From: Haliotis cracherodii
Taxonomy: Eukaryota
Length of the DNA stretch: 64,000 nt
NCBI RefSeq assembly: GCF_022045235.1
Contig: NW_027266298.1
Span: 1,550,001 to 1,614,000 of the forward strand
Direction of reading: 5' to 3'
Shown: piece by piece, positions 311 to 64,000 of the stretch
How the letters are laid out: every line of letters begins with the position of its first letter
Numbering within the stretch: position 1 is the first letter of the stretch
Position numbers and translations under genes: made by a program
Notes under the pieces: generated by a model
What the model was told of the DNA's origin: nothing
The model's database searches: none
What the model saw: the letters and a program-made list of their open reading frames with translations, nothing else

Positions 311-464
311 GGTGGGCCATTCCCGGAGGTACTGCAATACCGGGTCAACCCGTGATGAGGGCGGAGCAAGCCCCGTGGCACCTCATCCCATTCTAAAAAT
401 CAGTTTCATATCGATGTCTCCATTAGGAGACGTATCAGATATTAAGCTGATAAGAACAGATACT
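311..464 (-). ncRNA. RNU2: U2 snRNA gene 1, 3' fragment (nt ~36-189)
   Basis: Minus strand AGTATCTGTTCTTATCAGCTTAATATCTGATACG...Sm site GATTTTTAG...CCCGGTATTGCAGTACCTCCGGG (stem-loop IV). Confidence 0.97.
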
Positions 465-533
465 TTTTTTTCTTTTTCATAAAAACGGTTTATTACAACA
501 TGAGAAACTGAAAATACAGAAAACGACAGAGAA

Positions 534-580
534 GTCACTACCCACAAAAAAAAACGCTATCACAGTGGTGGGGTAGTGAC
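534..580 (-). other. Conserved 3'-UTR stem-loop (family A)
   Basis: GTCACTACCC(C)AC pairs with GTGGGTAGTGAC around a loop containing CTGTGATA. Confidence 0.75.
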
Positions 581-998
581 CATAACAAGAGACAGCTAGA
601 AGAAATAAGACATAAGAAGCAACATAATACAGCAATAAAGAGTAAACAAACACAGAACAGCCCTGCGAGGCACTGTTGTAAAACTACAATGGACATGAAA
701 CTCGGAACAAATTAATACTGAACTAGAAACAGCAAATAACTGAGAAACATTAACAAAAGGGCAATATGGGGACAGAGAGGGGGACACTAATGGAACATGG
801 ACATGCAAGCAGACGAATAATGTCATTACACTAAATAGGAAGACAAGTCAATAACATAACACAATGCTCAAAACCAAATCACAAGAGCATATAAAAGAAG
901 ACATAAATAGCACATCACACTGCACAAGCAACAGTAAATATAACAAAACAAAACATAACAATCAAAGCAGTGAAAACAGACAAATGGATAATGAAACA

Positions 999-62700: not shown

Positions 62701-63167
62701 CTACCACCTATCTTATCCAAAGCAACATTTAGAACACAATTAAAATCCCCACCTAAAATCACAAGCTTATTCGTTACAAAATATTTAGAAATAGTATGGA
62801 AAAAATTAACCCTATCGGCAGGAATATTGGGAGCATAAATATTAATAAACCGGACATTAAAGCCATCAATATTTAAATCCACAACCAATAATCTCCCCTC
62901 CATATCAAAATAAAAATAATCAACAACGAAATTAAGTTTAGAAGAAACAATAAACCCCACACCACGACTAAAATTGCTCCCAAAACTCCAAAAGGCCTTC
63001 CCATTAAATTTAGACTCGAAAGACTTAGCAATTGCCAAATTATACACATGGGTCTCCTGAAGAAATAGAAAATCAATGCCGTCAGTGACAAAAGAATGAG
63101 ACAATAAATTTAATTTAACAGAATCATCTAAAAGTCCATTGCAATTAATTGACACAAAATTGTACAT
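59715..63167 (-). CDS. Family E ORF2, copy 2
   Basis: Translation appears identical to copy 1. Confidence 0.96.
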   Translation of the reverse strand: MYNFVSINCNGLLDDSVKLNLLSHSFVTDGIDFLFLQETHVYNLAIAKSFESKFNGKAFWSFGSNFSRGVGFIVSSKLNFVVDYFYFDMEGRLLVVDLNIDGFNVRFINIYAPNIPADRVNFFHTISKYFVTNKLVILGGDFNCVLNVALDKIGGRGVVQAGSHLLKQWVSDFSLFDVYRSKFPGSVAVSWRNTAGVGSRLDRFYISSSLRCSLVSADISPCSFSDHDYVSFKLKDFAGISFGPGYFKCNNSLLDNSFKALFAGFCFNHVPPLASISLDWWDAFKLEIKSFLQLFAKVRKSQQASLRKDLVYEYKNLCQAESLHPGLYSDQIAAVKKQLHDLEILEFRGNLVRSKAKDLEIGERPSSYFLRKESQRGKRKSISSILDPFGNKLSTSREIMGVFVDFYSDLFGYEPIDDEICTEFLADLPTLDSVDSASLEGDISRDEILNTLKAMENDKSPGPDGLTKEFYVSNFDVLGDVLLRVVQLSFQEHTLPASSKTSYISLLCKDMNNAENVRNWRPISLLNVDVKLISKLLCTRLGKVIGSIVHVDQTCAVPGRSIHDNCHLIRNVLDYVDQKDLPCAFISLDQEKAFDRVSHQFLFKVLDAFGFGPNFKKWVKILYTDISSAILINQHISQPFPVTRSVRQGCGLSPSLYVLALEPLLNYIRKKSQISGVKLPGTDDSAKISAFADDGLGFCTSDASIGHLLAAYSFYGKASGSKLNLAKTHGIFVGKWRSRSDHPFGISWIEHSKIVGIMTGRNVSADDQFYPILSKFRSVLNVTKGRSISIFGKTVVCNVMALSKLWYRGAVTPFSKHYVELFQRETFRFIWSSTAEPIRRSVCHKTVLDGGLGVVHIQSKLFSFYLRHIQNLLTHFSAKWTFFAKYWLGMSLRHYCSAFASLLFPHSETMPIFYQHCFLALKRFEAVHSHFLIDMFRFTSKQFYVCLLQTVVENKIELLYPRIPFRHVWLNLHNHFVDPLSKSVNYRLIYDSLPLGYALYARGMSVTPNCPLCRLAIETSDHLFIYCQCVDVLWDIVFKWLDHLSFGLMKRSTEVIRFTLIPKIPNSHRKSLCIYLLTLAKYSIWLVRNSNKFEHKKLNGNDIMLRFLSFLRTRIRVDFCRFSFSTFSDYWLSSSLFCSVDADHTLKHNV

Positions 63168-63786
63168 AAAAAGTGGTTGTGTGGAGAATATACAGAAGGC
63201 AAAAAGGATATAATACTAACAAAATACAACACAAAGACCATACTAAAAGAACACACAATGATGAAATACAAAAATGCAGAAGCAAACAGCAACGAAATAC
63301 AAAAACAACTAGGAAAAGGAAGAAAAAAAACAAACATGAAACAAACCCAAAATACAACAAAATTTTTGAAAATAAAACATACCTTAAGGATGAGATGACT
63401 GCAAAACAAGGATATAATAGACAAAGAAACCCAAAACACCAAAGAAAAAATTTAAAGAGAGAACTGTAAACTAATATGCAAATATCCCCAACCCAGTTAA
63501 TACGAAAACACAATACCAAGTAAAAGAAAATTTCCCAGAATGCTACAGCCATACCCCCCAACAATTCTACCACCCCCAACAAATCCACCACCACCCCCTC
63601 AAACCCCAAGACAGGGCAACAGCCAACACGCAGCACAACCAGCACACACATACAAAAGACAGATAAAAAAGAAAGTATACACTCCCTACATAGGGAGAAC
63701 CTGGCGAACGAAATTAAGGCCATCGAGCTAACTCGTAAATGATGGACATAGCAACAATTCGTTATCTGGGCACAAATATACATCAT
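63145..63786 (-). CDS. Family E middle ORF, copy 2
   Basis: Translation appears identical to copy 1. Confidence 0.5.
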   Translation of the reverse strand: MMYICAQITNCCYVHHLRVSSMALISFARFSLCRECILSFLSVFCMCVLVVLRVGCCPVLGFEGVVVDLLGVVELLGGMAVAFWEIFFYLVLCFRINWVGDICILVYSSLFKFFLWCFGFLCLLYPCFAVISSLRYVLFSKILLYFGFVSCLFFFFLFLVVFVFRCCLLLHFCISSLCVLLVWSLCCILLVLYPFCLLYILHTTTFYVQFCVN

Positions 63787-63791
63787 ACAAT

Positions 63792-64000
63792 TTATGGGGG
63801 ATCTTCAGGTTCAAACACTGTCTCAGACCTGCGCGACCCAGAAGGGGACCGAGACACTGCAGCCGCAGCAGCATCAGCTACCCCCGGAGGGATGCAGGAT
63901 ACCCGCAACCTTTTTCCCGCTGAGCCCCCCTGGGATTTAGAACGCGCACGTGACTTTGATGGGACCGTTTGCCACACATGTGGATCAATAAGAGCAAGGA
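63792..64000 (-). CDS. Family E ORF1, copy 2, C-terminal part
   Basis: Ends EPEDPP*; truncated by the window edge. Confidence 0.9.
   Translation of the reverse strand, partial: LALIDPHVWQTVPSKSRARSKSQGGSAGKRLRVSCIPPGVADAAAAAVSRSPSGSRRSETVFEPEDPP

Follow-up and report, generated by a model that had tools for sequence, protein, structure and literature searches.

Eight U2 small nuclear RNA (snRNA) genes, all on the minus strand in an Rfam scan, lie in the window analysed here, a 64,000-nucleotide (nt) stretch of Haliotis cracherodii DNA (assembly GCF_022045235.1, contig NW_027266298.1, called C35 below; G000:C35:1550001-1614000), and each is interrupted by a retrotransposon. By their domain content these inserts are Tx1-type (L1 group) non-long-terminal-repeat elements with an apurinic/apyrimidinic endonuclease (APE); they belong to autonomous families (A-E) with an ORF1 and an ORF2 (ORF, open reading frame), and to families that carry ORF1 only (h5, h6). 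Their structure suggests that they probably use two RNAs, one headed by U2 sequence, which is copied into new sites, and one spliced from a donor in the array spacer to an acceptor within the element, which is likely the one translated. The U2 parts and inserts, in window coordinates, are as follows; family E is given further below with its nested inserts.

307-464, 19006-19163, 28012-28169, 34888-35045, 41762-41919, 48875-49032, 51995-52152 and 59091-59248, minus: U2 3' parts (nt 36 to end) after poly(A)
19164-20990, minus: ORF1-only h6; ORF 19383-20855 (490 amino acids, aa), C-terminal domain 19386-19730, acceptor 20923
20991-27038, minus: family D, autonomous, decayed, inserted in the h6 head; acceptor modules 26899, 26832 and 26752, middle ORF 24861-25523
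28170-33914, minus: family A copy with variant U2 head; ORF1 32527-33693, middle ORF 32007-32540, ORF2 from 32014, acceptor 33764
35046-40788, minus: family A copy whose head equals U2 to nt 35; middle ORF 38882-39415, acceptor 40639
41920-47901, minus: family C, autonomous, ORF2 frameshifted; acceptor modules 47761 and 47691, middle ORF 45760-46515
49033-51021, minus: ORF1-only h5; ORF 49347-50795 (482 aa), acceptor 50864; copies 99.1-99.3% identical in the C5 array
52153-58117, minus: family B, autonomous, three open ORFs; ORF1 56696-57904, middle ORF 56049-56690, ORF2 52619-56071
59249-64000, minus: second family B copy; middle ORF 63145-63786; runs past the window, where h3 is inserted in its head

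U2 arrays and their inserts

All eight U2 3' halves directly follow a poly(A) tail and begin at nt 36, or at nt 37 where an A has merged into that tail. The first-pass annotation had placed every cut at nt 35/36, which holds for the 3' side, but only 2 of the 7 U2 5' heads inside the window (the eighth lies 3 kb past its end) follow U2 through nt 35, the others diverging at nt 22-26 in a family-specific manner. It was right that the U2-targeting inserts are co-oriented with U2, that intact U2 is absent from the 64 kb and that the spacers are homogeneous (97.1-100% identical in the window). Its five two-ORF and two ORF1-only families correspond to autonomous A-E and to h5 and h6, but A-D have a third, middle ORF; the distance from U2 +1 to ORF1, given as about 200-350 nt, is slightly wider in range, at 213-363 nt to the ORF1 AUG in the window families.

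The array is filled with insertions locally and is not saturated as a whole, as had been claimed. The nearest intact U2 unit lies 4 kb beyond the window, and between C35:1487000 and the end of the contig inserts occupy 23 of 66 units, including all of the last 13; a second U2 array, on contig C5, has inserts in 7 of 73 units. The inserted-versus-intact count that the first-pass annotation had called for, made on the assembly, likewise went against saturation, with 128 exact intact-U2 pattern matches and 31 poly(A)-U2 junctions genome-wide. Inserted units are skewed to the downstream edge in both arrays (p=2.9e-8 for C35, whose upstream end lies outside the assembly, and p=0.0034 for C5). Together the two arrays hold 13 recent families, six autonomous (A-F) and seven ORF1-only (h1-h7), so that the idea of several lineages and their parasites at one site stands as far as the shared U2 site is concerned, but in an array that is mostly intact. 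The arrays were considered as haplotypes of one locus and this was rejected, since their units are 87% identical and the flank is not shared. A vertebrate-type U2 search pattern gave 0 matches because U2 here has one extra A.

ORF2 of families A, B and E contains an APE endonuclease (PF03372), a reverse transcriptase (RT; PF00078) and a C-terminal zinc region (PF13966, zf-RVT), a CCHC knuckle (CX2CX4HX4C) is present in 13 of 13 ORF1 proteins, which also have an RNA-recognition-motif-like region as judged from alignment, and poly(A) tails occur on 28 of 28 inserts. Keno, a Tx1-clade, APE-type element, targets U2 genes, according to the parts consulted of three papers (PMC4640811, PMC4494074, PMC6136364), and several Utopia families are described in a single U2 array in the portion consulted of one of them (PMC4640811). 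Of these two U2-targeting elements, both named in the first-pass annotation, Keno shares the APE domain and the strict U2 location; a restriction-like endonuclease was not found and the APE domain lies N-terminal to the RT, so that identity with Utopia was rejected. The flank position differs from that of Keno: the 3' flank sits 3-4 nt upstream of the published Keno TCTG position in 28 of 28 inserts. One outside locus, L094, has its flank at the published position.

Of 269 candidates, 150 were scored; the top 22 endonuclease matches among them, each at least 57% identical, sit in the two U2 loci, and the next tier falls in U1 arrays, a U4/U6 array and tRNA arrays. A quick RT tree (43 rows, built without a named Tx1 or Keno reference) unites the six U2 families in one clade together with locus L067 (support 99), with a sister group that includes the U1 and U4 families (98); loci with the published Keno flank (L090, L092, L094, L108) fall apart from the U2 clade, in a polytomy. 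Given the junction offset and the nearest relatives in U1 and U4, the elements are best called Keno-like rather than demonstrated Keno.

Relatives were seen on other targets as well. U1 arrays with units of 565 and 579 bp (L187-L194; C6:9.30-9.37 Mb, C32:1.97-2.00 Mb), carry sister Tx1-type families at about U1 nt 32, and one of the U1 arrays holds an ORF1-only element resembling those of the U2 arrays. A U4/U6 array with a 1487 bp unit (L195-L198; C34:17.60-17.67 Mb) carries a sister family in U4, once in tandem; a description of U4-targeted Tx1 elements was not found in the open-access literature. More distant Tx1-like families occupy tRNA gene arrays (L199-L203; C27, C13, C7), one family adjoining different tRNAs, and public metagenome contigs (L070, L071, L072, L076, L090-L094, L108, L139) contain U2-associated Tx1-like elements with two 3' junction positions and altered heads.

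U2 heads, splice acceptor and middle ORF

Among the 28 inserts the heads match U2 to nt 20-48, varying by family and copy. The family A body occurs with both variant and wild-type nt 22-28, h7 has three copies with a variant head and one with the wild type, and B and h7, in different arrays, share a similar variant head, while the sequence upstream of U2 +1 always matches the local array. In a tandem of h3 in B, the incoming h3 head took the place of the B head. These patterns support a mobile RNA that carries a U2 head, with head variants moving with the element, and would fit homology-guided 5' joining by an RNA that includes the U2 start.

Within the spliceosome, the 5' ends of these snRNAs pair with U6 or with splice sites. 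In C, F, h2, h3, h4 and h5 (6 of 12 families, tested in 13 rows, h6 being excluded as it has no head) pairing of the 5' untranslated region (UTR) with U2 nt 2-5 was better than in at least 95 of 100 shuffles, as it was in L092 and L094 among 7 outside loci; the other five (L071, L072, L076, L086, L108) were not above shuffles. The complement of U1 nt 1-6 is present in 4 of 4 U1 families and in 0 of 13 others (p=0.0004), and an anti-U4 motif in the single U4 family and in 0 of 16 others, both motifs having been chosen after inspection. Antisense in the 5'UTR to the first bases of the snRNA thus often appears to change with the target, and masking ends that the spliceosome uses would be a plausible purpose for it.

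Ahead of ORF1, 18 of 18 families (13 in U2, 4 in U1, 1 in U4) share a pyrimidine tract and AG followed by the same structured, conserved module of about 55 nt, found in 21 copies because C has two and D three. At the first module the pyrimidine fraction is 0.67-0.89 of 18 nt and the AG is preceded to give 16 YAG and 2 AAG; where the module is single, the distance to ORF1 is 57-77 nt. Its first hairpin shows 3-4 pair types per position, and an Rfam search matched it to no known RNA family or ribozyme. A GTRAG donor upstream of the acceptor inside the UTR was found in 0 of 18 families. The corresponding window features are these.

57962-58686, minus: GT-AG intron of 725 nt with its donor in the spacer (58686) and its acceptor in family B (57962), spanning the U2 promoter and head
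51590, 48470, 41357, 34483, 27607 and 18602, minus: homologous spacer donors, implied introns 709-727 nt
57905-57961, minus: structured module of about 55 nt, family B, from acceptor to ORF1 AUG
58050-58117, minus: family B U2-derived head and antisense to U2 nt 2-8
51021, 47901, 40788, 33914, 27038 and 18024, minus: other head starts

A contig from a run presumed to be RNA (X1 record 8) matches family B over 57542-57961, breaking off exactly at the base that comes next after the AG, and then continues with 23 other letters, which match the C5 spacer at 23 of 23 positions and the C35 spacer at 20 of 23. A 20-letter part of them has 72 exact genome matches, once per C5 unit, and the 23-mer ends at the one sense GTRAG donor that a unit contains, which lies 570 nt upstream of U2 +1. 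The joined donor-acceptor sequence has 0 exact matches in the assembly and 35 with one mismatch, none of them in the arrays. The implied introns would excise both U2 promoter and head, and the upstream exon might arise by read-through from the preceding U2 or from a conserved spacer block with CRE/ETS-like words. Other contigs of runs presumed RNA cover much of family B and carry no information on start, strand or level. R2 is reported to be co-transcribed with its target locus (PMC4494074, in the part consulted). As to transcription from the U2 promoter, as first proposed, the heads and antisense do back a U2 head on the mobile RNA, but the junction contig starts upstream in the spacer, so that transcription from U2 +1 cannot be the whole account. 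Inserted copies carrying the spliced form were not found in the assembly; the copied RNA must therefore be unspliced, a departure from L1-style cis preference that may explain why ORF1-only parasites thrive. A splice acceptor for ORF2 in the inter-ORF region was considered and set aside, being present in A and L068 and not in B or D.

The strongest competitor, though an unlikely one, is a single RNA that starts at U2 +1 and is translated as such, the spliced contig representing rare read-through noise into a tract kept for another reason. The heads and antisense point to a +1 start, there is one clear spliced contig only, and the U4/U6 unit has no clear donor. Against this, the acceptor position and its AG are kept in all 18 families over three targets, in C and D acceptor and module were re-duplicated together while the tract sequence drifts, and the junction is exact at both consensus sites.

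In families A-D a single frame stays open, beginning close to where ORF1 stops and closing 5-20 nt beyond the ORF2 AUG. It contains 0 stops in 133, 171, 220 and 204 codons, where dinucleotide shuffles give 4-7 (p=0.012, 0.004, 0.003 and 0.0008, respectively), and the inter-ORF distances of 400, 514, 661 and 613 nt differ yet keep the frame. An uninterrupted old E copy has a middle ORF of 38 aa, and the open frame recurs in one U1 family and the U4 family (p=0.004 each) and in L067. Of 48 outside loci, 11 were dropped because ORF1 or a start was not found, 19 had spacers below 150 nt and 18 were scored, 7 of which, not independent of one another, have a significant open run ending at ORF2 (L073 by forward run). 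In two of three recent D copies the middle frame is broken, alongside other damage; dN/dS values (nonsynonymous to synonymous substitution rates) of 0.5-0.76 for the middle ORF were set aside as biased, coming from alignments of 53-65% identity. From this layout the middle ORF is likely to be a ribosome bridge from ORF1 to ORF2. All six families and L067 keep a CTCCC-N5-6-GGGAG hairpin near the start of the inter-ORF region (window 56510-56525 and the sites homologous to it). In the distant L1-like elements L121, L129, L133, L135 and L140, the long spacer ends in an ORF overlapping the ORF2 AUG.

That the middle ORF instead encodes a working membrane protein seems improbable. Its products in A-D are 177-251 aa long and about half F, L, V, I, C and W, and the frame is open in all four; however, codon-position bias was not detected (p=0.32-0.85), hydrophobicity is equal in the other frames, length ranges from 38 to 251 aa, Pfam and Atlas gave no match, and the sole shared motif is the RNA hairpin, which is read in another frame in L067. 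It seems still less probable that the open frame is a by-product of T-rich, A-poor composition, for instance a site for internal ribosome entry (IRES) or a poly-U tract. The families are related, stops are rare because A makes up only 12-15%, and an IRES has been predicted for long vertebrate spacers in the part consulted of PMC5381506, but the shuffles retain that composition and still give stops, the other two frames carry 3-14 of them, and an open run ending at the ORF2 AUG recurs in the U1, U4 and outside lineages.

According to the two-RNA model, ORF2 protein would nick U2 at nt 35-36 and prime on the poly(A) tail, and a template beginning at U2 +1 would pair through its head with the upstream target and replace it, thereby moving head variants between sites, while UTR antisense and head mutations could mask the spliceosomal ends of the snRNA. 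A transcript from upstream, by read-through from the previous U2 unit or from a spacer promoter, might be spliced to the acceptor and lose the head, after which ribosomes could run from ORF1 through the T-rich, open middle ORF and start anew at the ORF2 AUG that it overlaps. The ORF1-only families would use ORF2 protein in trans through borrowed 3' tails, and array turnover would keep most units intact and leave inserted ones at the downstream edge. As a bolder proposal, which we hold only tentatively, the system could amount to a retrovirus-like split, in which a masked, snRNA-headed RNA is copied and an exon-trap mRNA is read as three cistrons, a sequence-free bridging ORF handing ribosomes to ORF2; such a bridge might be general for long-spacer L1 and Tx1 elements, and the ORF1-only lineage might take ORF2 protein by a new fold.

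Several observations count against this interpretation. Support for the splice comes from a single contig, whose run is only presumed to be RNA and derives from another individual or species (B about 97% identical), and a second junction, X8, is compatible but ambiguous because it is one substitution from genomic family A sequence. The acceptor is common to the families by descent, its 18/18 count having no shuffle control; the one GTRAG of the U1 units is weak and lies within the promoter, and the U4/U6 unit lacks any. An RNA start at U2 +1 was not seen. A, B, D, E, h1 and h7 have no antisense to U2 or none that exceeds shuffles, the anti-U2 motif (chosen after inspection) separates 9 of 12 from 1 of 5 families at p=0.06, and by duplex energy the own snRNA is best in only 10 of 17. 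The middle ORF is absent in family F (p=0.73) and in the second U1 family (p=0.82), 11 of the 18 scored long-spacer outside loci are not significant, and part of the repeated copies are block duplications rather than fresh insertions. The least probable alternative is a spliced-leader RNA encoded by the spacer and trans-spliced to U2-promoter transcripts, the head being removed as an outron: internal donors are lacking and the extra piece, once per array unit, has the typical spliced-leader length of 23 nt, but the 23-mer differs at 3 places between arrays, the sequence after it shows no Sm-like site common to both, the contig might just stop at that point, and cis-splicing suffices, since each element has a donor on its own strand 570 nt upstream.

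ORF1-only families and older inserts

The ORF1-only elements are 1.8-2.0 kb long, with an ORF1 of 443-523 aa and no ORF2, and core dN/dS values of 0.04-0.18 in 6 of 6 pairs indicate that all seven families evolve under purifying selection. Six of them form one clade (99/99), h5 having no firm place in the tree, and a single origin appears in 80% of bootstrap trees. All seven proteins carry a C-terminal domain of about 90 aa that is absent from autonomous ORF1; its model, from 7 sequences, has a predicted local distance difference test (pLDDT) of 86. Word search, Pfam and Atlas gave no homolog, 1.84 billion representatives returned only this genome's own two proteins, and a fold search had no match (best Z 4.0, root-mean-square deviation 4.5, 93 aligned), although such an absence is no proof of a new fold. 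An origin from ORF2 was rejected after a negative comparison. The domain has 10 genome matches, all within the U2 loci, and the U1-array ORF1-only element gave no score on its profile.

The 3' tails of h3, h4 and h7 are 77-87% identical to those of A-D, and the other four 46-69%. N-terminal, C-terminal and tail groupings of the ORF1-only families disagree, and A and B shared ORF2 more recently (dS 0.32) than ORF1 (saturated), so that modules recombine. At 99% identity between arrays whose units are only 87% identical, h5 bears the mark of recent mobility between them.

Family E and the elements nested in it, missing in part from the earlier inventory, which lacked the Bel/Pao element and both I-like long interspersed nuclear element (LINE) copies, occupy the start of the window.

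465-18024, minus: family E, autonomous Tx1-type LINE; ORF1 region 16569-17800, ORF2 999-4454; inactivated by nested insertions in the inter-ORF region
4461-16408, plus: Bel/Pao long terminal repeat (LTR) retrotransposon in E at the ORF2 start; 5-bp target duplication, ORFs broken
4476-9935, minus: I-like LINE in the 5' LTR of Bel/Pao; APE, RT and RNase H, frameshifted
9936-10606, minus: truncated 671-bp I-like LINE copy, also in the Bel/Pao 5' LTR

The I-like LINE (4476-10606) was inserted twice at one LTR position, and a 13-bp duplication matches its short-repeat tail. A second copy of the nested E insert of 17.56 kb exists at 100% identity, along with adjoining D-h6 tandems (C35:1522754-1568024; L017-L019 and window 465-18024), and the 27.7 kb repeat carrying it could be either a recent block duplication or an assembly artefact. 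Farther off, C35:1.30-1.39 Mb (L047-L057) contains a decayed, partly inverted continuation of the U2 array in which older element families and short interspersed nuclear element (SINE) insertions occur, and three more U2 genes, without insert and with a different upstream flank, lie at C9:2.316-2.323 Mb (L043-L044).

Comparison with known systems

U2 targeting and several families per array are already known from Keno and Utopia. A description of the splice acceptor and junction, the middle ORF, the ORF1-only domain families or the target-matched antisense was not found in the open-access literature, although supplements may list such families. Our results raise testable answers to how a LINE inside an RNA polymerase II (Pol II) snRNA gene, normally non-coding, comes by an RNA that can be translated and how ribosomes get to ORF2 over a long inter-ORF region. 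The presence in one genome of sister lineages on U2, U1, U4 and tRNA arrays provides a natural series for APE target switching, which bears on site-specific gene insertion tools, and the ORF1-only families are a further example, of Tx1 type, of LINE parasites that code for protein, here with an undescribed domain.

Like the elements here, Keno is an APE-RT LINE in U2 genes, co-oriented, with a precise 3' and a varied 5' boundary in the sections consulted (PMC4640811, PMC4494074, PMC6136364); in contrast, the 3' junction here is 3-4 nt upstream, the nearest relatives are in U1 and U4, 13 families share a genome, and a middle ORF, splice acceptor and ORF1-only derivatives occur that those sections do not mention for Keno. 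Utopia, in the portion of PMC4640811 that treats it, also has several families in U2 arrays, tandem insertions and varied 5' ends, but relies on a restriction-like endonuclease where APE is found here, and in Phytophthora disrupted U2 genes outnumber intact ones, the reverse of the present arrays. HAL1, HeT-A and Ag-Sponge resemble the h families in an intact ORF1, absent ORF2 and LINE-type 3' tail, and the part consulted of PMC5786205 lists ORF1-only LINEs for Jockey, L1 and CR1 only; those three derive from L1, Jockey and CR1, whereas the present seven families are Tx1-type and site-specific, with an added domain of about 90 aa and swapped tails.

In SART1 and L1, termination-reinitiation operates with the ORF2 start adjoining the upstream stop, and in megabat L1 removal of the spacer AUGs lowered activity 3.3-fold, as far as the consulted parts of three papers go (PMC5972666, PMC5381506, PMC4072516); for long-spacer L1, the choice between IRES and reinitiation is left unsettled in PMC5381506. 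Those parts treat an IRES or small ORFs, whereas in the present elements a single ORF takes up almost all of the 0.5-0.8 kb spacer.

The U2 inserts also resemble R2 of 28S rDNA, in target-locus transcription, target sequence on the RNA and clustered insertions. In R2, the RNA carries target sequence from upstream that helps 5' joining, and a ribozyme frees the R2 RNA. While R2 is thus self-released, the host part here appears to be removed by the spliceosome, and the host is a Pol II snRNA array.

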